A DNA stretch of 64,000 nucleotides from Candidatus Moraniibacteriota bacterium (GTDB lineage Bacteria; Patescibacteriota; Minisyncoccia; Moranbacterales; GWC2-37-73). The notes beneath the pieces were generated by a model. It made no database searches. It was not told where the DNA came from and saw nothing but the letters and a program-made list of their open reading frames with translations. Below are positions 3,957 through 60,622 of the stretch, in pieces. The position numbers and the translations under genes were made by a program. The stretch spans positions 76,395 through 140,394 of the forward strand of contig DNVR01000019.1 of assembly GCA_003507445.1 (NCBI GenBank). The letters run 5' to 3'. How positions within the stretch are numbered: position 1 is the stretch's first letter; each line of letters begins with the position of its first letter.

Positions 3957-4451
3957 TTAAAATGGCACGTCTTCAAGTCTTACTTCGTCCTGTTCTTCAT
4001 CAAGGTTGATGGTTGGAATTTCTTCAGCCATAGGTGTTTGTTGTTGAGCGGTTGGACGAGGTGTTGCAGCTGCTGCTCCCATTGCCATTGGCGCTGGTCT
4101 TGGTCCTGATGAACCTTGTGCGCGTTGTCCCATTTGCATATTTTCAGCCACGATGTCAGTTGTTTTTCTTTCAACTCCGTCTTTGCCAGTGTAAGAACGT
4201 GTTTCTAATCTTCCCTCAAAATATACTTCTTGCCCTTTGGTTAGATATTGTCCAGCGATTTCAGCTAGACGCCCCCAAATTACAATGTTGTGAAATTCTG
4301 ATTTCTCTTGTTTTTGTCCAGCTTTGTCATTCCAAGTTCGGTTGGTAGCGATACCAACTGTGGTCACGGTTTGACCAGAAGGAGTGGTGCGCAATTCTGG
4401 GTCTCTAGTTAAGCGTCCGATGAGTTGAACTTTGTTAAGATTCATGTTCAT
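3957..4451 (-). CDS. ssb: Single-stranded DNA-binding protein
   Basis: MNMNLNKVQLIGRLTRDPELRTTPSGQTVTTVGIATNRTW...: an OB-fold SSB with a Gly/Pro/Ala-rich linker and an acidic tail ending ...EDVPF. Confidence 0.88.
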   Translation of the reverse strand: MNMNLNKVQLIGRLTRDPELRTTPSGQTVTTVGIATNRTWNDKAGQKQEKSEFHNIVIWGRLAEIAGQYLTKGQEVYFEGRLETRSYTGKDGVERKTTDIVAENMQMGQRAQGSSGPRPAPMAMGAAAATPRPTAQQQTPMAEEIPTINLDEEQDEVRLEDVPF

Positions 4452-4542
4452 GTAGCATGTAGCATGTATCATGTAGCATCAGAAGAAAAAATCTATCTTT
4501 TGCATTTTTGTTACACGTTATATGTTTTATGTTATATGATTT
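4437..4542. repeat. Composite heptamer-repeat cassette E2 (copy of E1), between rpsF and ssb
   Basis: catgtagcatgtagcatgtatcatgtagcatc ... tttgttacacgttatatgttttatgttatatga. The ssb start codon lies inside the CATG-repeat part. Confidence 0.7.
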
Positions 4543-5103
4543 TTAAATGTTTAGCAGTTCATCAAGTTGCTTGTCGATATTTTTTGATTCTTCTTTGGCA
4601 GTTTCAACTTTTTTAACAGGAGCTGCTGGAGCTGGTGTTGTTGGTCGTTGAGTTGGTCGCTGCATTGTTGGACGTTGATTGTTGCCAGGTCTTTCAGTTC
4701 GTTGTTGTGGTCGTTGCGCAGGGCGTCCAGCATTGTTTGCAGCTTCTTTTGCTTTTCTTCGGTCTTTTGCTCCAAGTTCTGGAAGATCCTCGGTTTTTAC
4801 AATCAAGAAACGAAGAACATCATTGTTCAAATTCAATTTGTTAGTGATGGCTTGGATTCCAAATTCTTTTTCTGCGTTTGCTTCATCTGCCCAAAAATCA
4901 ATCTCGGGAAGTTCGAAGCGGCGAGTGATGTAGGTTCCTTTGTTCTGGTGTTTGATTTCATAAGCGAGTTTTCTTTTTTCGCTTAATTCTTCTCCAACCA
5001 TTGTTGCTTGCTCAAGAGCTAGAATTGCATTAACTCCTTCTTTGATCGCAGGCAGGTTTGCTTCTTGTCGTTCACCAACAAGGTAAAACAGTTCGTATTG
5101 CAT
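4543..5103 (-). CDS. rpsF: 30S ribosomal protein S6 with a basic/proline-rich C-terminal extension
   Basis: MQYELFYLVGERQEANLPAIKEGVNAILALEQ...LAYEIKHQNKGTYITRRFELP is an S6 fold. Forms the conserved rpsF-ssb-rpsR order. Confidence 0.85.
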   Translation of the reverse strand: MQYELFYLVGERQEANLPAIKEGVNAILALEQATMVGEELSEKRKLAYEIKHQNKGTYITRRFELPEIDFWADEANAEKEFGIQAITNKLNLNNDVLRFLIVKTEDLPELGAKDRRKAKEAANNAGRPAQRPQQRTERPGNNQRPTMQRPTQRPTTPAPAAPVKKVETAKEESKNIDKQLDELLNI

Positions 5104-5140
5104 ACGCGTTTTTTAAATTAGTTATTAAATGTTAATTAGC

Positions 5141-5258
5141 TTAATAATTCTAAAAGGCTAAGTATTAAAGTTTAAATCAAATCTAAATTTTAAAGTATAA
5201 ACTTTGTACTTTTTTACTTTAGAATTGTTTTAGTATTTAGACCTTAGATTTTAACCTT
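5141..5258. repeat. ~120-bp intergenic MITE-like element (copy B of the element at 186-318)
   Basis: ctaagtattaaagtttaaatcaaatctaaattttaaagtataaactttgtacttttttactttagaattgttttagtatttagaccttag. The terminal ctaaggtctaa-type inverted repeats match copy A. Confidence 0.5.
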
Positions 5259-5260
5259 AT

Positions 5261-5361
5261 AAAAAAAGCCACCAAACAAGAAAATCCTTGCTTTTAGTGG
5301 AGCATTCCAGCCTATCCACTTTTGGCTTAGTGGCGGGCTAGATTCGGACTTTCTTAGTTGT
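5261..5361 (-). ncRNA. Candidate ~100-nt small RNA (unclassified) with a consensus promoter and intrinsic terminator
   Basis: On the minus strand, TTGACC (plus 5391-5396), a 17-nt spacer, then TATAAT (plus 5368-5373). The transcript would end in a hairpin plus UUUUUUU (plus 5261-5300). No ORF is present. Confidence 0.35.
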
Positions 5362-5367
5362 AGATTG

Positions 5368-5396
5368 ATTATAGCAAGGTTTTTGGAATTGGTCAA
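5368..5396 (-). promoter_or_regulatory. Consensus sigma70-type promoter (TTGACC-N17-TATAAT) on the minus strand
   Basis: Plus-strand attata at 5368-5373 and ggtcaa at 5391-5396, with exactly 17 nt between them. Confidence 0.45.
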
Positions 5397-5480
5397 TGGC
5401 AGTGCAAGAACCTGTAGAGATGAGGCATTGCCTCGTCTCTACAAATTTAAATATATAAAAACAAAATATTATCATCCTCA

Positions 5481-5509
5481 TTGACATATGTCACCGCTTC
5501 CGCCATAAT
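5481..5509 (+). promoter_or_regulatory. Sigma70-type promoter (TTGACA-N17-CATAAT) for the M23 peptidase gene, with a 12-bp perfect palindrome TGACATATGTCA (5482-5493) over the -35 box
   Basis: TTGACA at 5481-5486 and CATAAT at 5504-5509. The palindrome tgacatatgtca overlaps the -35 box. Confidence 0.45.
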
Positions 5510-5628
5510 AAAATCCAGGTCTTTGACAAATTGAAAATGAAAGCGAGGTGAAAAAGGGAAATTGTTTTGGCAAGTGGGGAGATGTTTTCTGTTATTTTTG
5601 AAATCCAACAAGGAAAAAGGAACTAGGA

Positions 5629-6834
5629 ATGAGAAAGCTTATTCTGACAATCATGTTTTTGAATTTGTTCAGTTTTGTTTCAAATGTCTTTGCAGATGAA
5701 GATACTATTCCGCCATTTTCGGAAATTAATTGTTCAATTGGCGCATCAATGGTGCAACCGCCAGCAACACACACAGACAACGATACGCAACGGACCTTTA
5801 ATGATCTTGTTGTATGGATTAACACATACAACAATCAAAATGTTCTGAATTTTGCCTATTTCAATGATTCATATTTAACTGACTGGGTCTGTTCTGGTGA
5901 CTGCACCGGAACAGATGAGTATGCAATTATTTACACCAACTCCTGGGCTTTTGCTTATTGTGATACTGAAGGACAAAATTGTTATGGTGGGTACATGGAT
6001 CCATATATACGTGGTTTAATGGTTCGTGAAATTTTGTACTCAACTGCTCCTATACGGACTTTAAGCGGTGCAATTTATCGTCCTTCAGATTTACCTCAAC
6101 TCACTGTTGCACTAAACCCTCAAGCAGGCGGGACGGTAGCGAGTTCGCCGACATCTAACTTCTCTTGTGCAGACGGAACGTGCACGGGAAATTTCTCGGG
6201 GAATGTAACGTTGACTGCGAGTGTAAACAGTGGATATCAGCTCATTAATTGGTATGAAAATGGTACGATTATCACTAACAATTGCCCCACGACCATTTTA
6301 GACTTGACTGTGAATTGCACAAGATCAATATCGGCAGAATTCATACCAGTACTTAAATGGCCATTAACTGGAACAAAAAGTAGTAGGAGTGAGTCTTGGA
6401 ATTTTGGAAGCACATGGACTTATGGCGAATGCCCTACTGGTACATACAAAAAACATTCGGGAATCGATGTGAACGCAACCGCTGAAGAAGCTGTTTATGC
6501 AGCACATGATGGTGTGGTCAAAAAGATATTTACTGGTCAGCATTCCCAATGGGCTGACGCAATTGTTATCGAAAGCACGGATGGTCGATTTACAACAGTA
6601 TATTGGCACGTTATAAAATACGGGAGTCTATCGGAAAATGACACTGTAACAAAAGGTCAGCAGATAGCCACTATTGCAAACTTGGAAAGCAATACGCATT
6701 TTCATTTTGGTGTTCGCTTTTCATTATATAGCGATCCGGAATCATATGCTGGTGCATTGCCAGTCGCTGGTTGTGGTGGATACCTAGCGTACCCAGAAAA
6801 ATTCATTGATCCTGACGTGTTAACATACGAATAA
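5629..6834 (+). CDS. Secreted M23-family metallopeptidase with a Cys-rich N-terminal domain of unknown function
   Basis: Signal peptide MRKLILTIMFLNLFSFVSNVFA. C-terminal HSGIDVNA...AAHDGVV...HFHFGV matches the LytM/M23 motifs HxxxD and HxH. Visibly higher GC than the flanking genes, and preceded by an SD (aaggaaaaagg). Confidence 0.7.
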   Translation: MRKLILTIMFLNLFSFVSNVFADEDTIPPFSEINCSIGASMVQPPATHTDNDTQRTFNDLVVWINTYNNQNVLNFAYFNDSYLTDWVCSGDCTGTDEYAIIYTNSWAFAYCDTEGQNCYGGYMDPYIRGLMVREILYSTAPIRTLSGAIYRPSDLPQLTVALNPQAGGTVASSPTSNFSCADGTCTGNFSGNVTLTASVNSGYQLINWYENGTIITNNCPTTILDLTVNCTRSISAEFIPVLKWPLTGTKSSRSESWNFGSTWTYGECPTGTYKKHSGIDVNATAEEAVYAAHDGVVKKIFTGQHSQWADAIVIESTDGRFTTVYWHVIKYGSLSENDTVTKGQQIATIANLESNTHFHFGVRFSLYSDPESYAGALPVAGCGGYLAYPEKFIDPDVLTYE

Positions 6835-6902
6835 TCAGGTGTATTAAAAAATGGGAGTTCCTCAAAAGAGGACTCCCATTTTTTTCTTACTCGGTAATAT
6901 AG

Positions 6903-7949
6903 CTATTTTAATTTTCCTACAAATGTTGGTTCACCATCAAATCCACCAAGAATAAAAATATTGTTTGTTTTTAGATCAATTTTAAATTGTAATAAAATAT
7001 TTAAAAAATAAACACTATCCTTATAATCTGCATCCGTTGGATTTTGTTTATAAAATTTTACAGGAAGATTTTCTCCTGTTGAATTGGTATTAGTAATTAT
7101 GTTTTCACAAATTCTAAACTTATTATTTTGCGATAAAGCTGCTATTTTTTTAATAACATCTACATCGCTTAAAATAATTCTTTCTGTTTTATAAGTCTTT
7201 CCGCAAAAATTAACATCCTCCATTTTATTCGTAAATTTAAATGATTCTCCAATTTTGTTTAATTGTTCCCTATATTTTAATTGAAATTCTGAACGTAGCT
7301 TTTTCTCAATGGCAGATTGCTGCCCTCCCAAAAGATTTGTTTCATTCGACAAAAATAAGCCATTATAAGAAAGCTTATAAATAAATTTATCTTTAATAAA
7401 AACAATAAGATAGTCCGTATAGGGCATATTATATACAACTATTTTTTTTGCCTCAACACCATCAATATTTGTTTTTTCTTTTGATAAAATGGTTGGGGTA
7501 TTTATTTCAACACCTTCATAGGAATTTATTTGCTTTAGTTTATTTTGATAATCATTAAGCCATTCATCCACATTTTTAAATTTCGATTTTTCAACATAAA
7601 CAGAAAAGAATTCTGTTCCATCTTGTTTCAGTCTAATTCTTATCAATGAATCTTCATCTTCTTTTGGTCCTGCTGTTTTAAAATCAAAATCTGCTGGTAT
7701 ATATATACTATATCCATAGCTGGTATTTTCATAAGAGCTAGAACTCTCGATTGTTTCTTCTGTTTTGTTCTCACCCTGTATCTGTTGCTCCTGACTTTTC
7801 TCAACCAGCTTCGGTTGAACTGCAACACTCTGCGGCCCTTCCGCCACCTCCCGATTTTTAATAACCATCCACGCAAACGCTCCAACTGTGATTGCAATAA
7901 TCACAAGTACGATTGTCCCCAAGCTCGTGCCAACTTTTTGATTTTTCAT
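6903..7949 (-). CDS. Membrane-anchored hypothetical protein (N-terminal TM, large extracytoplasmic domain)
   Basis: ORF track 362 aa. Probable start MKNQKVGTSLGTIVLVIIAITVGAFAWMVI (TM helix). Very AT-rich, with no recognisable domain. Confidence 0.45.
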   Translation of the reverse strand: MKNQKVGTSLGTIVLVIIAITVGAFAWMVIKNREVAEGPQSVAVQPKLVEKSQEQQIQGENKTEETIESSSSYENTSYGYSIYIPADFDFKTAGPKEDEDSLIRIRLKQDGTEFFSVYVEKSKFKNVDEWLNDYQNKLKQINSYEGVEINTPTILSKEKTNIDGVEAKKIVVYNMPYTDYLIVFIKDKFIYKLSYNGLFLSNETNLLGGQQSAIEKKLRSEFQLKYREQLNKIGESFKFTNKMEDVNFCGKTYKTERIILSDVDVIKKIAALSQNNKFRICENIITNTNSTGENLPVKFYKQNPTDADYKDSVYFLNILLQFKIDLKTNNIFILGGFDGEPTFVGKLK

Positions 7950-8170
7950 TATTTTTTTTATTCTAATTTTTAGATGTCTAAATTGTACCATAGGAATTGA
8001 TATTTGGGAAAATTTTTGCGGTGGACATTTTTAGTTTTCAGTTGTAGTATTAATTATTATGAAATTTGAAATAAATTCAAAATGTAAACCAGCTGGTGAC
8101 CCCAGTAGCAGATCCGTCTGCTGACGGCTCGCTACGGGGCAAGCCAACCTCAATTTTATAAAATATTATT

Positions 8171-10129
8171 ATGAAATTTGTAATCGATAGTAAATTTAAG
8201 CCAAGTGGAGATCAACCAAGTGCAATTGAGGCTCTTATATATGGCTTGGAACATCGGGAGAAATTTCAGACGTTGTTGGGTGTGACGGGATCTGGGAAAA
8301 CATTCACGATGGCGAATGTGATTGAGCACGTGCAAAAACCGACTTTAGTGATTGCGCCGAACAAAACTTTGGCGGCACAGTTGGTGCAAGAGTTTCGAAC
8401 TTTTTTTCCAAAAAATGCAGTGGAATATTTTGTGTCGTATTATGATTATTATCAACCGGAAGCGTATATTTCTTCATCGGATACTTATATAGAAAAGGAA
8501 GTGCAGATAAACGAGGAAATTGATCGTTTGCGTCACGCTGCAACCAGTGGTCTTTTGTCGAGGAGAGATGTGATCATTGTGGCATCGGTTTCTTGTATCT
8601 ATGGTTTGGGCAGTCCGGATTATTATCGCGAAGGAACGGCTGAGGTTATTGTGGGCGAAAAGAAAAATCGTGAGGAATTGATGAAGGGAATGATCGATAT
8701 GCAATATCATCGAACGGATGTGTTGGCACGCGGAAAGTTTCGAGTAACAGGCGACACGATTGAGGTGATGACGCCGAGTCGAGAAATTGTGACTCGCATT
8801 GAATTGAAAAATGGCAAGGTTGCTCGCATTTACGAATATGATTTCTTGACCGGAGAAAAATTGGGCGAGCTTGAAAAAACTCTGATATATCCAGCCAAAC
8901 ATTTTGTGGTGCCGGAACCAGTGATGAAAGAGGCATTGGGCGAAATCGAAAAGGAAGCAAAAGAGCGCGTGAAATATTTCAGAGATAATAATAAATTATT
9001 GGAGGCTGAAAGAATTGAGAGGCGAACCAAACAGGATTTGGAAATGATGCGCGAAGTTGGATATTGTAATGGAATTGAAAATTATTCTCGCTATTTGACT
9101 GAGAGGGAAGCTGGCGAGCCGCCGTATACTTTGGTGGATTATTTCCCAAAAGATTTTTTGATGATTATTGATGAATCACACGTAACGATTCCGCAATTAA
9201 ATGCAATGTATGCTGGCGATCGTTCTCGAAAAAACGCACTTATTGAGAATGGTTTTCGTTTGCCAAGTGCATATGACAATAGACCGCTTAAGTTTGATGA
9301 ATTTGAAGAGCGCATCAATCAACTTATTTTTACCACAGCTACACCAGCTGCTTATGAAAAAGAGCATTCCAGTTCAACAGCGCAGCAGATAATCAGACCA
9401 ACTGGACTCCTTGATCCGGAAATTATTATTAAATCTGCCAAGGGACAAGTGAAAGATGTGCTGGCTGAAATTGAAAAAGTTGTTGCAAAAAAAGAAAGAG
9501 TCTTAATTACCGCACTTACAAAAAAGATGGCAGAAGATCTTTCAGAATTTTTGAAAGAAAATGGAGTGCGCTGCGAATATTTGCATTCGGATGTGGACAC
9601 GCTGGATCGCGTGCTTATTTTGCAGGGACTTCGCAAGGGAGATTTTGATGTTTTGGTTGGCGTTAATCTTTTGCGCGAAGGCTTGGATCTTCCTGAAGTT
9701 TCTTTGGTAGCAATTTTGGATGCTGACAAAGAGGGCTTTTTGCGCAGTGAAACATCGCTTATTCAAACAATCGGACGAGCTGCCAGAAATATTAATGGCC
9801 GCGTTATTTTGTATGCTGACAATATCACTGGCTCAATGAAGCGCGCTATTGATGAGACAAATCGTAGACGCACTTTGCAGACAGCATACAATAAAAAACA
9901 TCATATTACTCCAAAAACTATCGAAAAAAATATTAAATCAATTGTGGATCATGAAATTAATCCTGAAGTACCACTTGATTTTTCTAAGCTGGAATCACTC
10001 GAAGACATTGCAGGTTATATCAAGCAAAAAGAAAAAGAAATGAAAAACGCTGCTCGCTCAATGGAATTTGAAAAAGCCGCCCTTATCCGCGATGAGATTT
10101 CCACCCTGCGAAAACTGCAGTTGAAATAG
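8171..10129 (+). CDS. uvrB: Excinuclease ABC subunit B
   Basis: GVTGSGKTF Walker A, helicase motifs, and a C-terminal UVR domain (MEFEKAALIRDEISTLRKLQ). 652 aa. Confidence 0.95.
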   Translation: MKFVIDSKFKPSGDQPSAIEALIYGLEHREKFQTLLGVTGSGKTFTMANVIEHVQKPTLVIAPNKTLAAQLVQEFRTFFPKNAVEYFVSYYDYYQPEAYISSSDTYIEKEVQINEEIDRLRHAATSGLLSRRDVIIVASVSCIYGLGSPDYYREGTAEVIVGEKKNREELMKGMIDMQYHRTDVLARGKFRVTGDTIEVMTPSREIVTRIELKNGKVARIYEYDFLTGEKLGELEKTLIYPAKHFVVPEPVMKEALGEIEKEAKERVKYFRDNNKLLEAERIERRTKQDLEMMREVGYCNGIENYSRYLTEREAGEPPYTLVDYFPKDFLMIIDESHVTIPQLNAMYAGDRSRKNALIENGFRLPSAYDNRPLKFDEFEERINQLIFTTATPAAYEKEHSSSTAQQIIRPTGLLDPEIIIKSAKGQVKDVLAEIEKVVAKKERVLITALTKKMAEDLSEFLKENGVRCEYLHSDVDTLDRVLILQGLRKGDFDVLVGVNLLREGLDLPEVSLVAILDADKEGFLRSETSLIQTIGRAARNINGRVILYADNITGSMKRAIDETNRRRTLQTAYNKKHHITPKTIEKNIKSIVDHEINPEVPLDFSKLESLEDIAGYIKQKEKEMKNAARSMEFEKAALIRDEISTLRKLQLK

Positions 10130-10854: not shown

Positions 10855-11961
10855 ATGGAGGGAGAAAACAAAGTAGAAGACAAAATATTGGAAGCGTCAG
10901 AAACAAAAGTTGATTCATCTGTCGGGGAGGCAGGAAAAAAGGTTTCTTTTGTTGAAAAAATGAAAAAGGTGTGTTGTAATGATGGATCTTGCAAAATTAA
11001 TTGCAAAAACAAAGGCCTTATAGTTGCTGCTGTTATTTTGTTGCTGTTGGTTGCGGGTAGTTATGGATATAAACAATATCGACAGAAGATAGATCTTGGT
11101 TCAGATGCTGTGAAAACTAAGGTAGAGAAATTCTTGAGTGAAAATGTTCCAGCAACAGCAAAGACTGGAATTAAAGATATAACCAAGGATGGAGATTTGT
11201 ATAAAATTACAGTTACTGTTGATAAGCAAGAAATTCCAATATTTGTGACTCGTGATGGGAAAAAGCTTATCCAAGCACAAGGTGTTATCGATTTGGACCA
11301 AAAACCAGCCGATCCAAATGCTCAAGCGCAAGCTCCTGAAAAAACAGAAGCTGAAAACAAAACCGATGTGCCAGTTGTTGATTTGTTTGTGATGAGTTAC
11401 TGCCCATATGGACTTCAAATGGAAAGAGGTGTTTTGCCAGCAGTTGAAGCGCTTGGAGCAAAAATAAAATTCAATGTAAAATTTGTTGATTATACTTTGC
11501 ACGGACAAAAAGAAGTTACTGAAAATGTTAATCAATATTGCATTGGAAAAACACAGCCAACTAAGTTGAATAATTATCTAAAATGTTTTTGGAAAGACAG
11601 CAAAGGTACAGCGGCTGCTTGTATGAAAACTGCAGGGGTTAATGCTGCTAGTGTCGCAACTTGTGTTGCTGATACCAACAAGGAATTTAATCCAACAGAA
11701 AAAGCGATGGGATTGAACAAGGAAGAAACTGTGAAATTTGGAGTGCAAGGATCTCCAACACTTGTGATTAATGGAACAACTGTTTCATCTAGCCGCGATA
11801 GCGCAAGTGTTTTGAAAGCTATTTGCTCAGGATTCACAACTCAGCCTAAGGAATGTGAGGCGAAATTGTCTACCACAGCTCCTGCAGCTGGATTTGATGA
11901 TGAAGCTGCTGCAGCAGGAGGAGCAGCATCTGCTGCATCTTGCGCAACACCAACAAACTAA
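10855..11961 (+). CDS. Membrane-anchored thioredoxin-fold thiol:disulfide oxidoreductase (DsbA-like)
   Basis: N-terminal TM (LIVAAVILLLLVAGSYGY), a CxxC active site (SYCPYG), and an Ala-rich C-terminal tail. Confidence 0.6.
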   Translation: MEGENKVEDKILEASETKVDSSVGEAGKKVSFVEKMKKVCCNDGSCKINCKNKGLIVAAVILLLLVAGSYGYKQYRQKIDLGSDAVKTKVEKFLSENVPATAKTGIKDITKDGDLYKITVTVDKQEIPIFVTRDGKKLIQAQGVIDLDQKPADPNAQAQAPEKTEAENKTDVPVVDLFVMSYCPYGLQMERGVLPAVEALGAKIKFNVKFVDYTLHGQKEVTENVNQYCIGKTQPTKLNNYLKCFWKDSKGTAAACMKTAGVNAASVATCVADTNKEFNPTEKAMGLNKEETVKFGVQGSPTLVINGTTVSSSRDSASVLKAICSGFTTQPKECEAKLSTTAPAAGFDDEAAAAGGAASAASCATPTN

Positions 11962-12041: not shown

Positions 12042-14936
12042 ATGCAGGAAGACAAGATAATTATAAAGGGTGCGCGCGAGCACAATTTAAAAAATATTGA
12101 TCTGGAATTGCCTCGGAACAAGTTCATTGTTTTTACGGGTCTTTCGGGCAGTGGAAAATCAACTTTGGCATTTGATACTATTTTTGCTGAAGGGCAAAGA
12201 CGATATCTGGAAAGTTTGTCGAGTTATGCGCGTCAATTTTTGGGACAGATGGATAAGCCAGATGTTGATTATATCCAAGGTCTTTCGCCTGCAATTTCTA
12301 TTGATCAAAAATCAACCTCACACAATCCTCGTTCAACAGTGGGAACGGTAACTGAAATCAATGATTACCTGAGGCTTCTTTTTGCTAAAATTGGCGTTCC
12401 TCATTGCAGTGTTTGTGGGCGTGAAATTTCAAAACTTTCCACCGATGAAATTGTGGATAGAATTTTGGATATGGGCGGAAAAAAGAAATCACAAACAATT
12501 GAAATTTCTTCGCCAATTGTGCGCGAGCGAAAAGGCGAATATTTGGCAATGTTGGATGATATGTGGAAGCGTGGTTATTCAGAGGCGATTGTGGATGGAA
12601 AACTGGAAAGATTGGAAAATTTTAAAGATATAAAATTAGGAAGATATAACAAGCATAGTATCGATATTATTGTTGATACGGTTGTTATTAATGAAGAAAA
12701 TCTTAGTAGGATTTTTGAAGGAGTTGAAAAAGCGCTCAGGCTTTCGCACGGAATTGTAAAAGTGAAATGCGTAAAAGAGTTGAAAGTTGAAAGTAGCAAG
12801 TCGAAAGAAATTGGATGTGTTGAACAGATTTTTAATCAGAATTTGTCTTGTCCGATTCACGATATTGAATTTCCAGAAATGGAGCCGCGCCTTTTTTCTT
12901 TTAATTCTCCTTATGGTGCCTGCGAGGGTTGCGAAGGTCTGGGTATGAAAAAAGAAATTGATCCTGCGCGAGTGATGCCAGATATGAATAAAACTATTGG
13001 CGAAGGAGGGATTATGCCTTGGAGTTTTAAACCTAATAATTATCAAGGAACGGTGCTAAAAGCAGTAGCTCAATATTATAGTATTCCTGACAATAAACGC
13101 TTGCGGGATTTGCCAAAAGATAAGATTGATATTTTGATGTATGGAACTGAGGACGAAGATTTGATAAAAGTTAAATATCATTTTAAAAGTGGCAGCGGTC
13201 ATTATAATGTGCGTTGGAAAGGTGTGGTGGCGTGGCTGCAGGAAAGATATCGCACGACAACCTCAGATGCAGTGCGCACAGACATTGAAAAATATATGTC
13301 GCAAAAACCTTGTTCGACTTGCGGAGGAAGCAGATATAAAAGTGACGTGCTTCTCGTTAGTGTTGGGGGTAAAAATATTTATGAAATTTCGGCGCTTAGT
13401 ATTTGGCAGTGTATCGAATTTTTTAAAAATTTAAAATTAACTGCCCGAGAGGAATTGATTGCTGGCAGAATTTTAAAAGAAATTGTTGCGCGCTTGGTTT
13501 TTCTTAATAACGTTGGTCTGGATTATTTGACTCTTGGGCGAGCAGCGTATTCTCTTTCTGGTGGAGAATCACAGCGCATACGTTTGGCTTCTCAGATTGG
13601 TTCACAACTGGTTGGAGTTTTGTATATTTTAGATGAGCCATCTATTGGTCTTCATGCTCGCGATAATGCAAAACTCATTGAAACATTAAGGCAGTTGCAA
13701 CAAATCGGCAACACATTAATTGTGATTGAACACGATGAAGAAATGATGCGCTCTGCTGACTGGCTGGTTGATATTGGTCCGGGAGCAGGAAAGCACGGCG
13801 GCGAAATTGTGGCGCAAGGATTGCCCGAAGATGTTATTAATAATCCAAAGTCACTTACTGGAAAATACCTTCGAAATGAGCTTGAAATTGAAATTCCAAA
13901 ATTCAGAAGACAAATGAAAAGAAAGAAGAGTATCACAGTGCGAGGAGCTTCTGAGCATAATTTGAAAAATGTGACAGTGGAATTTCCACTTAAAGTTTTC
14001 ACTTGCGTGACTGGAGTTTCTGGATCTGGAAAATCAACATTGGTAGAAGAAACTTTATACAAGGCGTTGGCTAATAAATTGCATCGCGCGCTTGATGTGC
14101 CTGCAAAGCATAATGAAATTATTGGCATTGAAAATATCAACAAGGTTATTATGATTGATCAATCTCCAATTGGGAGAACGCCGCGCTCAAACCCTGCCAC
14201 TTATACTGGTCTTTTTACGCATATTCGCGAGCTGTTTGCGCAAACAAAAGACGCCAAGCTTAGGGGATATGGTCCTGGCAGATTCTCATTTAACGTGGCT
14301 GGCGGGCGCTGCGACAATTGCTCTGGCGAGGGATATCTTAAAATCGAAATGCAGTTTATGCCCGATGTGTATTTGCCGTGCGATGTTTGTAATAGTAAAA
14401 GATATAACAGTGAAACTTTGCAAGTTAAATATAAGGGTAAAAATATTTCAGAGGTGCTGGCGATGACAGTTTCTGAAGGCGTTGAATTTTTTGGCGCACT
14501 TTCAAAAATATACGAACCACTTAAAGTTTTGGAGGAAGTTGGTTTGGGGTATATTGAACTTGGTCAAAGCGCCACCACACTTTCTGGTGGAGAAGCGCAG
14601 CGTATAAAACTTGCCAGCGAACTTTCGCGTCGCGCGACTGGAAATACTTTATATATTTTGGATGAGCCAACCACAGGTCTTCATTTTGATGACATCAAAA
14701 AACTTTTAACAGTGCTCAATCGTCTTGTGGATGCGGGAAACACCGTTGTTGTTATTGAACACAATATGGACGTGATTAAAACTGCAGATTGGATCATCGA
14801 TATGGGACCGGAGGGTGGCGACGGCGGCGGAAAAGTTGTTGTCACTGGTCCACCAGAAGAAGTTATCAAATATCACAAAGAAAGTTATACCGCTAAATAT
14901 TTGCGACAAGTCCTGAAGCCGAAAAGCATACAATAA
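12042..14936 (+). CDS. uvrA: Excinuclease ABC subunit A (copy 1)
   Basis: Two ABC ATPase modules ([10 protein letters not shown] and [10 protein letters not shown]), Zn-finger Cys pairs, LSGGE signatures. 964 aa. Confidence 0.95.
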   Translation: MQEDKIIIKGAREHNLKNIDLELPRNKFIVFTGLSGSGKSTLAFDTIFAEGQRRYLESLSSYARQFLGQMDKPDVDYIQGLSPAISIDQKSTSHNPRSTVGTVTEINDYLRLLFAKIGVPHCSVCGREISKLSTDEIVDRILDMGGKKKSQTIEISSPIVRERKGEYLAMLDDMWKRGYSEAIVDGKLERLENFKDIKLGRYNKHSIDIIVDTVVINEENLSRIFEGVEKALRLSHGIVKVKCVKELKVESSKSKEIGCVEQIFNQNLSCPIHDIEFPEMEPRLFSFNSPYGACEGCEGLGMKKEIDPARVMPDMNKTIGEGGIMPWSFKPNNYQGTVLKAVAQYYSIPDNKRLRDLPKDKIDILMYGTEDEDLIKVKYHFKSGSGHYNVRWKGVVAWLQERYRTTTSDAVRTDIEKYMSQKPCSTCGGSRYKSDVLLVSVGGKNIYEISALSIWQCIEFFKNLKLTAREELIAGRILKEIVARLVFLNNVGLDYLTLGRAAYSLSGGESQRIRLASQIGSQLVGVLYILDEPSIGLHARDNAKLIETLRQLQQIGNTLIVIEHDEEMMRSADWLVDIGPGAGKHGGEIVAQGLPEDVINNPKSLTGKYLRNELEIEIPKFRRQMKRKKSITVRGASEHNLKNVTVEFPLKVFTCVTGVSGSGKSTLVEETLYKALANKLHRALDVPAKHNEIIGIENINKVIMIDQSPIGRTPRSNPATYTGLFTHIRELFAQTKDAKLRGYGPGRFSFNVAGGRCDNCSGEGYLKIEMQFMPDVYLPCDVCNSKRYNSETLQVKYKGKNISEVLAMTVSEGVEFFGALSKIYEPLKVLEEVGLGYIELGQSATTLSGGEAQRIKLASELSRRATGNTLYILDEPTTGLHFDDIKKLLTVLNRLVDAGNTVVVIEHNMDVIKTADWIIDMGPEGGDGGGKVVVTGPPEEVIKYHKESYTAKYLRQVLKPKSIQ

Positions 14937-15724: not shown

Positions 15725-17212
15725 ATGAAAAAGTCAAGATTACAGCGGAAAGTAGCTGAGCTGCCTCAAAATCCGGGGGTGTATTTTTTTCGTGATCAAG
15801 AGGGTAAGATTTTATATATTGGCAAGGCGACAAACCTTCGTTCCAGAGTTCAGTCGTATTTTCGCAATGTCATCCCGAACTCGTTTCAGGATCTAGATGA
15901 GCCTAGCGAGATGCTGAAACAAGTTCAGCATGACACAAAGGGATTCTTGAGCGTTCCTGGGCGGAGTGAATGGATTGGGTTGATGGTGGCTCAAGTTGTG
16001 GATATTGATTTTGAGCAGACGGATTCAGTTTTGGAAGCGCTGATTTTGGAAAGCAATTTAATTAAAAAATATCAGCCAAAATATAATACTCTGGAGAAAG
16101 ATGATAAATCATTTTCGTATTTTGTTGTCACTAAAGAAGAATTTCCAAAAGTTTTGATTGTGAGAAAAACAGATTTAGTTTGTCATCCCGCACTTGATGC
16201 GGGTTCCAGTCACACGCACAAATCTGGCTCAGCTCTGGATTCCCGCCTACGCGGGAATGACAAGGCCTCAAAGCCTTGTAAAAAAATACAAAATACCAAA
16301 TACCAGATACCATATACCAAGACCTTCGGTCCTTATACGAGCAAGCAACAAATGCAGACCGCGCTGAAAATTATCCGTCGCATTTTCCCGTTTCATGCTG
16401 GGAAACAAAAAACTGAAAAAGGCTGTTTGGATTTTCAAATCGGTCTTTGTCCTGGGCCGTACGCTGATGCAATTTCAAAAACTGATTATAAAAAAAATAT
16501 TCGAGGGATTGAAATGATTTTGCAGGGGAAGAAAAAAAGCTTGATTTCAAAAATGGAAAAAGAAATGCAAGTTTTTTCCAAAAAAAATGAATTTGAAAAA
16601 GCGGCAGTTCTCCGAAATAAAATTTTTGCATTGCAGCACATTCGCGATGTGGCACTGATGACAAGGGAGATGGAACATGGAGCATGGAACATGGAGCATG
16701 AAATACAAGATACAAAATACCAAATACCAAATACCAGAATCGAGGCTTATGATATCTCCAACATCTCTGGACAATATGCTGTTGGTTCAATGGTGGTTTT
16801 TGAAAATGGTATGCCGAATAAATCGCAGTATCGCAAGTTTAAAATAAAAACTGTTGATGGCAGTAATGATGTGGCGATGATGAAAGAAGTTTTGTCGCGA
16901 AGATTTAATAATGATTGGTCAATGCCAGATTTGATTTTGCTGGATGGCGGACAGGGACACGTTAATATGGCAGGGGATTTGGTGCGCGAATTAGGACTAG
17001 ATTTGTTGATTGTCGGTGTGGCTAAAGGTAAGACGCGTAAAAATCTCAATTTCCAATTTCCAATTTCCAATAAAATCCCAATGTCTCAATTTCCAAAAGA
17101 AATGCAAGAGTTTTTAAATGATAAGAATCTGGTTAAATCTATTATGGATGAGGCTCACCGCTTTGCAATTGCTTATCATCGAAAATTACGCAGTAAAAAC
17201 GCCTTAAAATAA
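15725..17212 (+). CDS. uvrC: Excinuclease ABC subunit C (GIY-YIG, UVR and RNase H-like endonuclease domains, no C-terminal HhH), carrying several in-frame repeat/MITE insertions
   Basis: GVYFFRDQEGKILYIGKATNLRSRVQSYFR (GIY-YIG), EFEKAAVLRNKIFALQ (UVR), and a DISNISGQ...LLDGGQGH endonuclease core. Inserted peptides: SFQDLDEPSEMLKQVQHD, CHPALDAGSS...DSRLRGNDK, NTKYQIPYTK, MEHGAWNMEHEIQDTKYQIPNT and NFQFPISN. Confidence 0.85.
   Translation: MKKSRLQRKVAELPQNPGVYFFRDQEGKILYIGKATNLRSRVQSYFRNVIPNSFQDLDEPSEMLKQVQHDTKGFLSVPGRSEWIGLMVAQVVDIDFEQTDSVLEALILESNLIKKYQPKYNTLEKDDKSFSYFVVTKEEFPKVLIVRKTDLVCHPALDAGSSHTHKSGSALDSRLRGNDKASKPCKKIQNTKYQIPYTKTFGPYTSKQQMQTALKIIRRIFPFHAGKQKTEKGCLDFQIGLCPGPYADAISKTDYKKNIRGIEMILQGKKKSLISKMEKEMQVFSKKNEFEKAAVLRNKIFALQHIRDVALMTREMEHGAWNMEHEIQDTKYQIPNTRIEAYDISNISGQYAVGSMVVFENGMPNKSQYRKFKIKTVDGSNDVAMMKEVLSRRFNNDWSMPDLILLDGGQGHVNMAGDLVRELGLDLLIVGVAKGKTRKNLNFQFPISNKIPMSQFPKEMQEFLNDKNLVKSIMDEAHRFAIAYHRKLRSKNALK
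15869..15934. mobile_element. P2-family palindromic MITE inserted in-frame in uvrC (66 bp)
   Basis: gtcatcccgaactcgtttcaggatctag atgagc ctagcgagatgctgaaacaagttcagcatgac. The same GCTGAAAC/GTTCAGC arms occur twice in the elp3-like gene. Confidence 0.6.
16182..16262. mobile_element. P1-family palindromic MITE inserted in-frame in uvrC (~81 bp)
   Basis: gtcatcccgcacttgatgcgggttccag ... ctggattcccgcctacgcgggaatgaca. Same termini and arms as the intergenic P1 copies. Confidence 0.6.
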
Positions 17213-17746: not shown

Positions 17747-17880
17747 TTAGGACTTACGCATTTTCTCAACTATTTCTTATTTGGCACGCTTTTGGATGAA
17801 TACTCAATATCCAAAAGCTCAAAGAGTTGCTGTCGCCAACTATTGGCCAAAAAAGAAATGTTTCGAAATGTGTAACTTCT
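17747..17880 (+). promoter_or_regulatory. ~135-bp leader/operator region, copy 1 (upstream of the HMA-domain permease), containing an 11-bp perfect inverted repeat GCTTTTGGATA/TATCCAAAAGC
   Basis: About 93% identical by eye to 19428-19555. Also contains the GTTTCGAAAC and TTGGCCAA palindromes. Confidence 0.55.
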
Positions 17881-17892
17881 TACTTATATAAT

Positions 17893-19413
17893 ATGCAAAA
17901 AATAACAGTTCCAATCATTGGAATGCATTGCAAATCTTGTGAAATTCTTGTTGAAAATAAGCTTTCTGAAATCAGCAAGATCAAAAAAATAGACGTCAAT
18001 TGTAAGAAAGGAACAGCTGATATTTATTACGAATCTCAAAAACCCAATATGGTGGAAATAGAAAAAGCCATCAGGGAAGCGGGTTATGCGGTTGGAGTGG
18101 CAGAAAAAAAACCGTTGTTCAGTCGGAATATAAATGAATATAAAGATTTGGGGATCGCCTTTTTGTTTCTGTTTGGTATTTATTTGATTGCAAAAAATTT
18201 AGGGCTAGCTGACATTGGAGTAAGTTCCGCATCAAATCCATCGAGCTTGGGCGTGGTTTTCTTGGTGGGGATTACGGCTGGGATTTCAACTTGTATGGCG
18301 TTGGTGGGAGGTTTAATTTTGGGAATTTCTGCTCGTCATTCTGAGAAACATCCTGAGGCTACTGCCGCGCAAAAGTTTCGTCCGCATTTATTTTTCAATG
18401 CCGGCAGGATTGTGATTTACGCCTTGTTGGGTGGACTGCTTGGTTTGATCGGTTCTTCATTTCAATTGTCGGGAGTGACTTTGGGAATTCTGACAATTGC
18501 AGTAGGAGTTGTGATGTTGTCACTTGGACTAAAATTGATTGGAATTTTTCCTCGTTTGGAAAATGGTGGAATAGCTTTGCCGAAAAGCATCAGCAGTGCG
18601 TTGGGCATTCACCCTGTTAAATCCTGCGAAGCAGGTGCTCGCAGTAGCGAGCAATTTAACAGGGTAAAAAATAATACCAAAGAATATAGTCATAAAAATT
18701 CATTCGTTATGGGTGGACTGACATTTTTCTTGCCCTGTGGCTTCACGCAAGCGATGCAACTTTATGCTGTGAGCAGTGGAAGTTTCACTCAGGGTGCAAT
18801 GATTATGGGTATTTTTGCACTTGGAACAGCTCCTGGACTCTTGGGTATTGGCGGTCTGGCTAGTGTGGTGCGCGGAATTTTTGCTCAAAGATTTTTTAAG
18901 TTCGCTGGAATCCTCGTGATATTTTTGGCGATGTTTAATATTGCCAATGGATATAATCTGACTGGCTGGCAAGTGTCGAAAGTTGAAAGTCGAAAGTTGA
19001 AAGTTGAAAGTGTGATTGATCCTAATGTGACAATGGAAAACGGCGTGCAGGTTGTTAGAATGAAGGAAATTGCCAGTGGATATTCTCCGAACAAATTCAC
19101 AATCAAAAAAGACGTGCCAGTGAAATGGATTATTGATGCTCAGGCTCCGTATTCTTGTGCCAGCAGTCTTGTGGTTTCAAGTTTGAAAATTCAAAAAACT
19201 TTAAAGGCAGGCGAAAACATTATTGAATTTACACCAACAAAAACAGGTAAAATCCCATTTTCTTGTTCTATGGGTATGTATACTGGCGCATTCACAGTTA
19301 TTGATGAAAATAGTGATGAGGTGGTGGTTGAAGACGACCTGGTTGAAAAGCAGGCTTCTGGTGGAATATGCAATAAGCAAGGATGTAATATAAATAAAGA
19401 TCGAATTAAATAA
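17893..19413 (+). CDS. HMA-domain membrane protein (N-terminal MxCxxC metal-binding domain, multi-TM permease-like domain with conserved Cys, C-terminal cupredoxin-like domain)
   Basis: GMHCKSCE heavy-metal-associated motif, several TM helices (FLVGITAGISTCMALVGG and FFLPCGFTQAM), and a C-terminal beta domain with conserved Cys. An in-frame (GAAAGTT)n repeat lies at 18975-19012. Confidence 0.6.
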   Translation: MQKITVPIIGMHCKSCEILVENKLSEISKIKKIDVNCKKGTADIYYESQKPNMVEIEKAIREAGYAVGVAEKKPLFSRNINEYKDLGIAFLFLFGIYLIAKNLGLADIGVSSASNPSSLGVVFLVGITAGISTCMALVGGLILGISARHSEKHPEATAAQKFRPHLFFNAGRIVIYALLGGLLGLIGSSFQLSGVTLGILTIAVGVVMLSLGLKLIGIFPRLENGGIALPKSISSALGIHPVKSCEAGARSSEQFNRVKNNTKEYSHKNSFVMGGLTFFLPCGFTQAMQLYAVSSGSFTQGAMIMGIFALGTAPGLLGIGGLASVVRGIFAQRFFKFAGILVIFLAMFNIANGYNLTGWQVSKVESRKLKVESVIDPNVTMENGVQVVRMKEIASGYSPNKFTIKKDVPVKWIIDAQAPYSCASSLVVSSLKIQKTLKAGENIIEFTPTKTGKIPFSCSMGMYTGAFTVIDENSDEVVVEDDLVEKQASGGICNKQGCNINKDRIK

Positions 19414-24067: not shown

Positions 24068-26860
24068 ATGGCTTCCAAAAAAGAAACTTCGAAACAAACA
24101 AATGAGATTGTAATCAAGGGTGCGCGAGTTAATAATCTCAAAAACATCGACGTTAACATCCCGAGGGATAAGTTCGTGGTGATTACGGGACTTTCTGGCT
24201 CGGGTAAATCATCGCTGGCTTTTGACACGATTTATGCCGAAGGTAATCGTCGATATATGGAAGGCCTTTCTTCGTATGCGCGAAATTTTTTGGATCCATC
24301 AGATAAGCCTGACGTGGATAAAATTGAAAATCTTTCCCCTCCAATTTCTATTGATCAAAAAAGCATTTCTCGTTCTCCGCGATCAACTGTTGGAACACTG
24401 ACTGAGGTTTATGATTATTTGCGTATTATGTATGCAAAAATCGGAGTGCTGCATTGCCCGGAGTGTGGGACATCAATGCAAAAAAGAAGCAATCAGGAAA
24501 TTTTGGATGAAATTTTAACATTTTCTCATCACACTCAGATTGCTATTTTGGCAAAGCCGAAGGATATTGCTGTTGGAAAAGAATTATTAAAACACATTGC
24601 GCAAATGGGCTATGCTCGTGTGCGTTTTAATGGAAAAATGTTTACGGTAGCGGAAGCTATGATGCTCAGCGAAAGTGAAATTGAAACTGATATTGAAATG
24701 GTTATTGATAGAATTGTGCTCGACAAGAAAAAACCTGATGTGGAAAGAATGTTAGACTCTATTGAAACAGCGATGAAAAACGGTGGCAATTCAATGAAGA
24801 TCTTGTTTGATAATGTTGAAGAACGTAATTATAACCAAGATTTCTTTTGCAGCGAATGCGGTGTGAAAATCAAAGAAGTGACGCCGCGTCATTTTTCTTT
24901 TAATAGTCCAGAGGGTGCTTGCGACCTGTGCTCCGGTTTAGGTTACACCTTAAAAGTAAATGAAGAACTTATTATTCCCAATAAAAATCTTTCTTTAATG
25001 GAAGGTGCAATTCAGCCCTGGAGCAAATCTGGTGGAAAAATAAGTGGACAGAGTGTGCAACTTTTGACGCTTAAAGATGTTGCAAAAAAATATAAGTTTT
25101 CAATGAACGTTCCGGTTAAAAAATTAACAGCTGATCAACTCAAAATTGTTTTACATGGTAATGATGGATTTGAAGGTGTAATTCCGGCATTAGAAAAAAA
25201 ATATCAAGAAACAAAATCTGATTATGTGCGCAGTGAAATTGAAAAATATATGACCGCACACACTTGTCCATCTTGCGATGGCAAGCGTCTTAAAAAAGAA
25301 TTTTTGGCGGTGGAAGTTCAAGGAAAAACAATAGATGTGATGGTCTCAATGAGTATAACTCATCTGAGAGAATTTTTTGAGAATGTTGAAAATTGGACAC
25401 AAACAACACAAGAGAAAAGCATAGGCAAACCTATTGTGCGAGAAATTTTGCAGCGTCTTAGTGCACTTGAAAACGTGGGATTGGAATATTTAAATTTGGG
25501 ACGATCAGCTCAAACAATTTCTGGTGGGGAAGCTCAACGTATCAGACTGGCTGCGCAACTCAATTCTCAATTGATGGGAATTGTATATGTTTTGGATGAA
25601 CCTTCCATCGGACTTCATTCTCGCGACACAGAAAAACTTATTAATACTATTAAAGCCTTGCAAAACGTTGGAAATTCATTGATTGTGGTTGAACACGATG
25701 AAAGCATCATTAAAGCTGCTGACTGGATTGTTGATATGGGTCCAGGGGCAGGAGAAGAAGGCGGAATCGTCGTTTTTGAAGGTGATTATAATCAACTTAT
25801 TAAATCTAAAAATCTTACTGCACAATATATATCTAAAAAGAAAAAGGTTTCAGAAAAGAAAAAAAATAGAGCTGGAAACGGTAAATTTATTGAAATTATC
25901 GGAGCTGAAGAAAATAATTTAAAAAATGTTGATATAAAAATACCATTGGAAAAATTTGTGGTTATTTGTGGAGTTTCAGGCAGTGGAAAATCAACTTTGG
26001 TAAAAAATATTTTAGCCAAAGCATTGTCGCGACATTTTTATAACACACGAGATCTTCCTGGTAAACACAAAAAAATCAAAGGATTTGAGCATATTAAAAA
26101 GGTTATTAGTATAAATCAAAATCCAATCGGACGCACTCCACGCTCAAATGCAGCAACGTATACTGGAGTGTTCTCACACATTCGCGACCTGTTTGCTGGA
26201 GTGGAGGAAGCAAAGAACAGAAATTATACTGCTAGTCGCTTTAGTTTTAATATGAAAGGTGGGCGCTGTGAAGTGTGCCAAGGGGAAGGCTCAAAGAAAA
26301 TAGAAATGCATCTGCTTCCTGATATGTATGTGAAATGCGAAGCTTGCGGAGGAACGAGGTTTAGCAAAAAAACCTTAGAGATTGAATATAAAGGCTTTAA
26401 TGTTGCACAGATTTTGGATATGGATGTGCGCTTGGCTCTGCGTTTTTTTGCAAGGCATCCGCTTATTGCTGAAAAACTTAAAACCATGGAAGATGTTGGT
26501 CTTGGATATTTGAAGCTCGGACAAAGTGCAACAAATCTTTCTGGTGGAGAAGCTCAGCGTATTAAACTTGCCACGGAGCTTGCACGAAAATCAACAGGCA
26601 GCACTTTGTATATTTTGGATGAGCCAACTGCAGGACTTCATTTTGATGATATCAGAAAATTGTTAAGCGTTCTTAATGCCTTGGTTGATAAAGGTAATAC
26701 AGTGATTGTGGTTGAACATAATCTTGATGTTGTTCGTGATGCTGATTGGGTGATTGAACTTGGACCGGATGGTGGCGACCTTGGTGGTTATCTCACTTTT
26801 GCTGGCACACCAGATCAACTTAAAAAAGACAAGAAAAGTTGGACCGCGAAATATTTGTAG
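24068..26860 (+). CDS. uvrA: Excinuclease ABC subunit A paralog (copy 2, full length)
   Basis: [34 protein letters not shown]... Has two ABC modules and Zn-finger Cys pairs. 930 aa; the domain order matches copy 1. Confidence 0.9.
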
Positions 26861-59931: not shown

Positions 59932-60256
59932 TTACGTTTCCACTATACCGGGATAGGCAAATTCTGGATGTGGCGTTGCCCTGTGTCCGTTGTGTATCCA
60001 ACTTCGCACCTCTTCCTGACTAAGAGTCTTTTCTCCGTGCTTCTTCCTTATGAGATCGCTGAGTCCAGGTGTGGGACTCATATTACTTTCATCTTCCCTA
60101 AGGATGATTTTTGATCCTATGGCTGCAGGTTTTGCGCGAGCTTTTCTGGTTTCATCCGAGATGTTGTTTTTTAGGTCGCCTTCCTTGTCGTTATCTCTTT
60201 GAAGCGCCCTTTTTGCTCCGCGTAAAGCTTTTAGTCGTTTTCCATTTCTGCTCATG
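59932..60256 (-). CDS. Small basic hypothetical protein (GC-richer)
   Basis: MSRNGKRLKALRGAKRALQRDNDKEGDLKNNISDETRKARAKPAAIG... No known domain. Confidence 0.4.
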
Positions 60257-60467
60257 TTTCCTCCTGGTTTTGGAAAGAGTATTAGCACTAGAACGAGGAT
60301 TTTTTGATTTCACCTCCTTTATTTTTGGTTCTAGCGCATCAATTTGTAAGCTACTTCTAGCTTAATACTTTAACAATTAATGTCAAATGCAGTATATTTA
60401 ATGTTTGGATTCTCAGCTATGGACAAATATTTTCTTTTTGGTATAATTGTTTTTGTAGCTCAAATAT

Positions 60468-60620: not shown

Positions 60621-60622
60621 TT

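Follow-up and report, generated by a model that had tools for sequence, protein, structure and literature searches.

A probably vertically inherited M23 peptidoglycan endopeptidase gene with a variable N-terminal module in Candidatus Moranbacteria

In a 64-kb stretch of Candidatus Moranbacteria DNA (64,000 nucleotides of contig DNVR01000019.1, assembly GCA_003507445.1; hereafter the window), the plus-strand gene at 5629-6834 encodes a protein of 401 amino acids (aa) with a predicted signal peptide, an N-terminal part that varies strongly among relatives and a C-terminal M23 peptidase domain. Taking the enzyme, its leader and a convergent partner gene together, we are fairly confident that the best explanation is a chromosomal, vertically inherited, monocistronic gene of Candidatus Moranbacteria. 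A first-pass annotation of the same DNA had described a GC-rich, horizontally acquired and operator-regulated lytic enzyme; its observations are partly confirmed and its interpretation partly supported. The core of that proposal, an M23-type cell-wall lytic enzyme whose N-terminal part contains Cys, is favored by sequence and structure models and has held.

A predicted secreted M23 peptidase with an intact active site

The protein divides into four parts:

5629-5694, plus strand: signal peptide, aa 1-22, MRKLILTIMFLNLFSFVSNVFA followed by DED, read from the translation by inspection
5695-6096, plus strand: orphan N-terminal domain (N-domain), aa 23-156, with 5 Cys, predicted to be beta-rich; putative targeting domain or pro-domain
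6097-6354, plus strand: InlB-type B-repeat (PF18998, Flg_new_2), aa 157-242, with C180 and C185
6355-6834, plus strand: M23 metallopeptidase domain, aa 243-401, and stop codon

The open reading frame (ORF) is a genuine coding gene, and residues 275-363 match Peptidase_M23 (PF01551) in Pfam at 58.1 bits (E 1.1e-15; cut-off 28.7). H276 and D280 of the HxxxD motif, H327, and H357 and H359 of the HxH motif are invariant across 14 homologues, and in sequence matches to the PDB both motifs align with those of M23 chains. The predicted local distance difference test score (pLDDT) of an AlphaFold2 (AF2) model is mostly 64-96 over residues 280-370, and Foldseek searches with the C-terminal half return ShyA, LytM, DipM, lysostaphin and Csd3 (E 2e-7 to 1e-5, probability 1.0), with target-normalised template-modelling scores of up to 0.74 for the M23 fold matches. 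Because the catalytic residues are invariant and the structure matches M23 enzymes, the protein is, as judged from sequence and model, an active-type, catalytically competent, secreted M23 peptidoglycan endopeptidase, and the C-terminal LytM/M23 domain read in the first pass is borne out. A C-terminal extension specific to the family (SDPESYAGALPVA.C..YLA.PE.FIDP) carries a conserved Cys, and C268 and C381 are conserved.

Other classes fit less well. A degenerate LytM amidase activator of the EnvC/NlpD/ActS type was rejected because all catalytic residues are present; Pfam detects neither the LysM nor the coiled-coil domains of such proteins here, and the ActS model reaches 25.9 bits against a cut-off of 375. 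No specific NCBIfam equivalog could be assigned, every match lying far under its cut-off. Nor does the locus resemble a lysostaphin/zoocin-type bacteriocin locus, since the non-catalytic modules are N-terminal and the gene stands in a housekeeping context, with rpsF and the gene of a PsbP-like membrane protein as neighbors.

The N-terminus consists of MRK, a hydrophobic run and VFA|DED, which by inspection has the appearance of a signal peptidase I signal peptide without a lipobox Cys; a signal peptide had also been read in the first-pass annotation. The AF2 model places a helix at residues 2-15, within this putative signal peptide, and homologues of the protein begin with comparable ones. Two further genes of the window (10855-11961 and 17827-19413) code for a thioredoxin-fold protein resembling DsbA and for a membrane protein in which DsbD_2 (CcdA-like) is joined to HMA and cupredoxin domains; extracytoplasmic thiol-disulfide machinery of this kind would agree with disulfide bonds in secreted proteins like the M23 enzyme.

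Between the signal peptide and the catalytic domain, the first-pass annotation had seen about 250 residues of novel Cys-rich sequence. The protein does contain 11 Cys, the three Cys motifs quoted there among them, but residues 159-238 match PF18998 (Flg_new_2, a divergent InlB B-repeat) in Pfam at 25.2 bits against a curated cut-off of 23.6, and two of the motifs, CADGTCTG and NNCPTT, lie in this repeat. Since residues 159-238 are a known domain, the novel stretch shrinks to about 134 residues (23-156). The B-repeat is modelled with a pLDDT of about 85-93, so that both its score and a confident beta fold place it in PF18998, and its C180 and C185 are invariant among homologues. With residues 23-241 as the query, HMMER retrieved 942 proteins at E<=0.001 from a 1.84-billion representative library; among the matches listed, nearly all cover the segment 157-241 only, and many of these B-repeat matches are huge repeat-array proteins with up to 27 copies.

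The N-domain itself (residues ~23-156) has no match in Pfam, even at E<=10. Its only relative among 5.8 billion proteins is P0043, at 54% identity, and the 1.84-billion representative library yields P0043, a partial match in P0047 and nothing else. Its AF2 pLDDT is 27-47 with an alignment of 18 sequences, and no fold is assignable.

A conserved catalytic domain behind a shuffled N-terminal module

At least 47 relatives of the M23 protein were found, and the named ones belong to Moranbacteria/Parcubacteria, with a few bins labelled otherwise. The M23 domain is 52-84% identical in 44 of the 47, the B-repeat is 26-71% identical where present and goes undetected in about half, and the N-domain is detected by BLAST in a single one (P0043). 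Judged by its catalytic domain, P0002 is the nearest relative (84%), and its N-region is unrelated. Conversely, in P0044 the B-repeat (71% identical) is combined with another M23 subtype, and P0047 and P0048 join a homologous B-repeat to a CHAP hydrolase in place of M23; the P0047 match reaches beyond the B-repeat into the N-domain. A conserved catalytic module combined with a shuffled, fast-evolving N-module fits, at the level of sequence, a targeting or latency module.

Paralogues of the protein within the window were not found by tblastn. The locus is present in eight assemblies of the organism (including GCA_003510165.1, contig DOKX01000004.1), all 99.9-100% identical, and population variation was set aside accordingly. 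Read sets SRR6487546 and SRR3309375 contain the locus. A phage origin was likewise discarded: no close relative was found in viral contigs of IMG/VR, and similarity to PHROGs was of a generic M23/endolysin kind. In six of 15 genome loci (L004, L005, L007, L009, L016 and L017; GTDB), the contig ends inside the gene near the boundary of B-repeat and N-domain; assembly may have broken there on repeated B-repeat sequence or on N-regions that differ between strains.

Chromosomal context and composition

Is the gene a recent arrival? The first-pass annotation had based horizontal acquisition on a visibly higher GC content. The difference is real against the immediate flanks, where intergenic GC is 0.35-0.37 and that of the downstream gene 0.295, but not against the 49 ORFs of the 64-kb window, within which all composition and codon comparisons were made: GC is 0.408 versus 0.376 +/- 0.033 (z about +1) and GC at third codon positions (GC3) 0.333 versus 0.310 +/- 0.039 (z about +0.6). 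Only second positions (GC2) stand out (0.455 versus 0.337 +/- 0.056, z about +2.1), an excess that reflects an amino-acid composition rich in Thr, Ser, Ala, Gly and Cys. Synonymous codon usage ranks 22nd of 43 genes (z 1.6 versus simulations). The genes recA, ssb, rpsF and efp have a GC content equal to or above that of the M23 gene, and uvrB is about equal (0.405); the M23 gene appears GC-rich only because its flanks are unusually AT-rich.

The neighborhood is one of housekeeping genes (RodZ-like, recA, efp, ssb, rpsF, uvrB, two uvrA, uvrC, copA and tRNA synthetases), and Pfam annotation finds no mobility genes flanking the M23 gene. Composition and codon usage thus match the surroundings, and with this housekeeping context and CPR (Candidate Phyla Radiation) relatives, horizontal acquisition is not supported. 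The gene is also monocistronic, a terminator at 6846-6884 separating it from the convergent gene.

Several side observations belong to this neighborhood. A protein of 1120 aa at 42770-46132 (Fn3_assoc, CHB_HEX_C_1), probably surface-exposed, has the same pattern of high GC2 and low GC3, showing that this composition recurs in another large protein of the window. The convergent partner gene (6903-7991, minus strand) has the lowest GC among the larger genes of the window (0.295; GC3 0.212) and is compositionally more deviant than the M23 gene, yet it is kept beside M23 in relatives. Two full-length UvrA paralogues lie within 12 kb (12042-14936 and 24068-26860), accompanied by uvrB (8171-10129) and uvrC (15725-17212). 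A tRNA-Ala(TGC) and tRNA-Ile(GAT) pair occupies 60468-60697; the usual place of such a pair is the 16S-23S spacer, and Rfam detects no rRNA in the whole window.

Promoter, leader and terminator

The regulatory features of the gene are as follows:

5481-5509, plus strand: sigma-70-type promoter, -35 TTGACA (5481-5486), spacer of 17 nucleotides (nt), -10 CATAAT (5504-5509)
5482-5493, no strand assigned: perfect 12-nt palindrome TGACATATGTCA, judged coincidental
5518-5529, plus strand: conserved leader block GGTCTTTGACAA, homologue of GTTCTTTAACAA in orthologous leaders (alignment A5)
5541-5551, plus strand: Shine-Dalgarno (SD)-like element AAGCGAGGTGA, 9/11 to AAAGGAGGTGA, 88 nt upstream of the start codon
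5616-5622, plus strand: AAAGGAA, probably the actual ribosome-binding site, spaced 6 nt from the ATG, by direct reading
6846-6884, both strands: bidirectional intrinsic terminator, common to the M23 gene and its convergent partner

The promoter matches 11 of 12 consensus positions, is the best plus-strand match in 4400-8300 and predicts a transcription start near 5516. In orthologues, TTGACA-17/18-TAnnCT stands at the corresponding position, some 115-175 nt ahead of the ATG, and because it is kept there the promoter of the first-pass annotation is supported. Ten orthologous sequences of the A5 alignment show clear -35/-10 pairs, and two show weaker ones.

The same annotation had read the palindrome as an operator. 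It is indeed perfect, its left arm being the -35 hexamer and its right arm the first bases of the spacer, but all A5 sequences keep the -35 position and none the right arm. The window holds one other TGACATATGTCA copy, at 20100 inside the copA coding sequence. The window contains 31 perfect 12-nt palindromes, roughly one every 2 kb, where shuffles give 21 +/- 4.6, and variants of TGACATATGTCA with up to three mismatches number 34 against 36.6 +/- 5.9 expected. Searches for a regulon in the window at up to one and up to three mismatches found no enrichment, and Pfam annotation shows no regulator gene adjoining the M23 gene. With an unconserved right arm, an intragenic second copy, unenriched near-matches and no adjacent regulator, an operator at -35 was rejected, and with it regulation through this site; we judge the palindrome, from the sequence comparisons, to be a coincidence of the -35 hexamer with its neighboring bases.

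The leader is about 110 nt long and purine-rich and folds no better than its shuffles (z +1.28). Rfam reports nothing at gathering score across the whole window, and at E<=1 the region 5100-5700 gives a spurious miRNA match only; on these results a riboswitch or structured leader was rejected. The block at 5518-5529 stands at or just past the predicted 5' end of the mRNA, and outside the -35 box it holds the only invariant or near-invariant columns of A5. A second TTGACA, at 5523, is part of this block and was rejected as another promoter.

The SD-like element matches AAAGGAGGTGA, the complement of the 16S anti-SD. It lies about 25 nt past the predicted transcription start, which is where a STAB-SD element, a stabilizing SD, would be positioned. 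An element of this kind occurs at -75 to -103 in 13 of 15 leaders of the family, with 11/11 matches in eight loci and 8-10/11 in five more, this copy included, and in six to nine leaders a mini-ORF of 3-5 codons (MEIV, MSTF, MIAC, MIAKN, MLVGN) follows within 7-14 nt. The window contains a second leader of like design on the minus strand (60386-60255), with TTGACA-16-TAAGCT, the shared ACAAATTGA block and a perfect AAAGGAGGTGA at 60320-60310, 65 nt before the ATG (60255); this leader (60255-60391) precedes a basic protein of 107 aa that has no Pfam or NCBIfam match. Given this second example, the SD-like element looks like a leader type of the organism and not a gene-specific switch. From these comparisons we regard it as a putative 5' mRNA stabilizer of the STAB-SD type or a ribosome landing site. 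A general 5' stem-loop pairing with the SD-like element was also considered; it is present in L001 and, by eye, in L012, is absent from the window leader and, by eye, from L008 and L026, and was dropped.

At the other end, the terminator hairpin has folding energies of -23.3 (plus) and -24.4 (minus) kcal/mol (z -5.8 and -6.1), with U-runs after the stem on both strands.

Upstream of the promoter are further signals, recorded here as observations in their own right. An inverted repeat at 5413-5443 (15-nt arms, 93% complementary, 1 nt apart; RNA hairpin dG -23.7, z -7.8) lies between a divergent promoter on the rpsF side and the M23 promoter, with no obvious gene that it would terminate. The repeat is single-copy in the window and a far stronger dyad than the 12-mer TGACATATGTCA; a related arm sequence, GACGAGGCAATGCCTCGTC, occurs in L008 at 4213-4240, upstream of the partner gene there. 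On the minus strand, a promoter-like site at 5396-5368 (TTGACC-17-TATAAT with an upstream TG, 11/12) precedes the rpsF start (5103) by ~265 nt, and a hairpin with a U-run at about 5262-5300 lies between the two. Site and hairpin suggest a long leader or attenuator for rpsF-ssb-rpsR; the 5262-5300 hairpin is not significant against shuffles (z -0.5) and has no Rfam match.

A conserved convergent partner

The gene facing the M23 gene across the terminator is:

6903-7949, minus strand: partner gene, 348 aa, comprising a transmembrane anchor at the N-terminus, then a PsbP-like ectodomain (aa ~70-240), then an unassigned C-terminal domain (aa ~243-348, or 257-362 when counted along the 362-aa ORF 6903-7991)

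Its ectodomain is modelled with a pLDDT of about 90 over aa 70-240 and matches PsbP in Foldseek (2.9e-6) and PF18933 (6e-5). The protein shows 100% identity to a hypothetical protein from a metagenome-assembled genome of a Candidatus Moranbacteria bacterium and 69% identity to the product of the gene convergent to P0002 in L001, where the upstream context differs, rpoB standing in place of rpsF. By tblastn, about 15 distinct loci encode one or both partner ectodomains convergently and immediately after the M23 gene, and the domain content varies across them (PsbP-like only, C-terminal only, or both).

Proposed role and alternatives

In the mechanism that we propose, the signal peptide would export the enzyme and the M23 domain would cut peptidoglycan, with the N-domain, presumably disulfide-containing, and the B-repeat serving, as we infer, to position or restrain it; the two would either direct the enzyme to a wall or surface or act as a pro-domain that keeps it latent. 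A strong, conserved sigma-70-type promoter would drive an unstructured leader of ~110 nt, in which the anti-SD-complementary sequence near the 5' end would act as a STAB-SD-like, ribosome-binding stabilizer of the message. The membrane-anchored PsbP-like protein, as a conserved genomic partner, might dock onto the M23 enzyme, inhibit it or protect against it.

Whose wall would be cut? We lean towards a target outside the cell's own division machinery, for example the wall of a host or neighbor at a contact site, a reading that we rate slightly below an even chance. We lean this way because the N-module is replaced or unrecognizable even in the closest relative, the catalytic domain is 52-84% identical, and relatives join the B-repeat to CHAP. 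Remodelling of the cell's own wall seems less likely than an external target and would still be a tenable role. The organism being a member of the CPR, an episymbiotic context is plausible, and to that extent the episymbiotic relevance suggested in the first pass stands. The host-wall idea is not new, since genome papers on Patescibacteria have already made the same guess of a host-wall or episymbiotic role for M23 peptidases (PMC9530719, PMC11393006).

Several points weigh against the mechanism outlined above. The evidence at hand does not separate an own-wall from a host-wall substrate. With a pLDDT of 27-47 the N-domain can be given a targeting role only tentatively, and its weak conservation could simply reflect little constraint, or the N-domain could be a pro-peptide like those of LytM and lysostaphin. 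In this copy the SD-like element matches at 9 of 11 positions and has no mini-ORF after it, and the start of transcription is itself deduced from the promoter. The link to the partner comes from adjacency, and a convergent orientation is unusual for effector-immunity pairs.

The alternative that survives best is a housekeeping autolysin, which would cut the cell's own peptidoglycan for growth, septum splitting or the insertion of surface machines, its N-terminus being a weakly constrained pro-domain or spacer. We consider this a possible explanation, with somewhat more speaking against it than for it. It agrees with the housekeeping neighborhood on the chromosome and the typical codon usage, with a single orthologue per locus across many Moranbacteria and its highly conserved catalytic domain, and with a membrane-anchored partner that could tether or regulate the enzyme at the cell's own envelope. 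The latent form of LytM (1qwy) is among the fold matches, and in latent M23 enzymes, LytM being an example, the N-terminal regions are poorly conserved. However, the wall-binding modules LysM and SH3b were looked for in Pfam and not detected, and complete turnover of the N-module between close relatives, together with the pairing of B-repeat and CHAP, is more typical of variable external targets.

An antibacterial effector with its immunity protein is an unlikely explanation. The enzyme would here be a bacteriocin-like exolysin against competitors or hosts, and the PsbP-like partner its immunity protein or inhibitor. The pair is kept in about 15 loci, even where the remaining synteny is lost, and the partner is extracytoplasmic and membrane-anchored, as are immunity proteins for wall-degrading effectors of type VI and type VII secretion systems; its PsbP/DUF1795-like fold also occurs in effector-binding Eag chaperones, which are among the Foldseek matches. 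Against this, the two genes are convergent and not co-transcribed, the domain content of the partner is variable, and annotation of the window neighborhood finds no secretion-system genes. Known immunity to M23 bacteriocins (Lif for lysostaphin, Zif for zoocin) is provided by a cytoplasmic FemABX-type enzyme, and a gene of that type is absent here.

The proposal of an acquired lytic enzyme under a repressor bound at TGACATATGTCA over the -35 box, to which a classic repressor position, a second exact copy of the palindrome in the window and a GC content above the immediate flanks lend some color, is largely refuted and very improbable given the ordinary GC3 and codon usage, a GC excess confined to second codon positions, relatives named as CPR (Moranbacteria/Parcubacteria) with none close in viral contigs, and the observations on the palindrome and its surroundings described above.

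With the reading as a vertically inherited, secreted M23 endopeptidase, the gene adds one more wall hydrolase of this class to the many annotated in CPR genomes. Its practical value is that of a well-delimited candidate for the host-wall guess, with an intact active site, clear domain boundaries, a conserved partner gene, and a promoter, leader and terminator that are all defined. What the comparison yielded on the side is of greater interest than the claims first made: turnover of the N-module, the PsbP-like partner, and a cassette of promoter and leader that has an SD-like 5' element and, in orthologues, a homopolymer run. All three may bear on the expression and targeting of lytic enzymes in ultra-small episymbionts; in this copy, two of the three are weak or missing.

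Homopolymer runs in orthologous promoters

Ten orthologous or related promoters carry a run of C7-9 or G7-8 between -35 and -10 (L001, L006, the second gene of L007, L008, L011, L012, L019, L026, L027 and L032). Most of these spacers are 18 nt long. The genomes with tracts have 32-45% GC, and in the rest of the fetched loci runs of this kind are rare. The spacer of the window promoter, TATGTCACCGCTTCCGC, has no run, and no C/G run of 7 or more occurs in the 64-kb window; the spacer sequence CACCGCTTCCGCC looks like an interrupted C-rich remnant. Tract-length polymorphism was sought, and none was seen at consensus level: lengths are constant in 13 independent assemblies (P0002, C8 in four; P0013, C9 in four; P0004, C9 in two; P0010, C7 in three), consensus assemblies being of a kind that hides minority length variants. 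Among the papers listed by a literature search, none ties phase variation and homopolymeric tracts to Parcubacteria.

One could imagine a Moranbacteria cassette for secreted M23 genes and some others, composed of TTGACA, a tract-bearing spacer, TAnnCT, GTTCTTTAACAA, a perfect anti-SD complement and often a mini-ORF, in which slipped-strand changes of the spacer would switch or tune expression of the lytic enzyme and the SD-like element and mini-ORF would load ribosomes to stabilize the mRNA. We regard this as speculative and rather improbable. If it were true, the window copy would be a tract-less, "locked" variant with a 17-nt spacer, and CPR bacteria would have, in this cassette, their first described case of a surface or lytic function under phase variation.

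Comparison with known systems

Phase variation by homopolymers in promoter spacers is known from Neisseria opc and porA and from Bordetella fim (reviewed in PMC2831843, PMC5084427). The orthologous spacers resemble these in their C7-9 or G7-8 run between -35 and -10, and differ in that the window promoter is tract-less and that lengths are constant across the 13 assemblies of four orthologues.

The leader recalls the STAB-SD stabilizer of Bacillus thuringiensis cry3A (Agaisse & Lereclus 1996, cited in PMC12970973) and the ribosome-protected hbs mRNA of Bacillus subtilis (PMC5737220). The common traits are an SD-complementary sequence of the GAAAGGAGG type in the 5' untranslated region, far from the start codon, near the 5' end of the transcript (a predicted end here) and dispensable for initiation at the main ORF. 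The differences are the CPR phylum, the mini-ORF after the element in many orthologues and the GTTCTTTAACAA block before it, and the 9/11 match in this copy.

Among M23 enzymes, the protein shares with the LytM/lysostaphin/ShyA type (MEROPS M23B; PF01551) the fold, the HxxxD motif, the conserved His and HxH, as well as secretion and a non-catalytic module joined to the catalytic one. In sequence it resembles solved members only distantly (best E 6.7e-7, identity 12-27%). Whereas those enzymes carry SH3b, LysM or a coiled coil, this one has an N-terminal orphan Cys domain and an InlB B-repeat, and the C-terminal extension with its conserved Cys is a feature of this family that sets it apart from them.

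The closest counterparts are the Moranbacteria/Parcubacteria homologues annotated as "peptidoglycan DD-metalloendopeptidase family protein" by NCBI (P0009, P0014 and P0035, for example). This copy differs from them in an N-domain common to P0043 only, in the absence of the C/G homopolymer run that most orthologues have and in a degenerate SD-like leader element. It shares with them the order of signal peptide, variable N-region, B-repeat and M23, an M23 domain in the 52-84% range of identity, and a common promoter-leader layout with a convergent partner.

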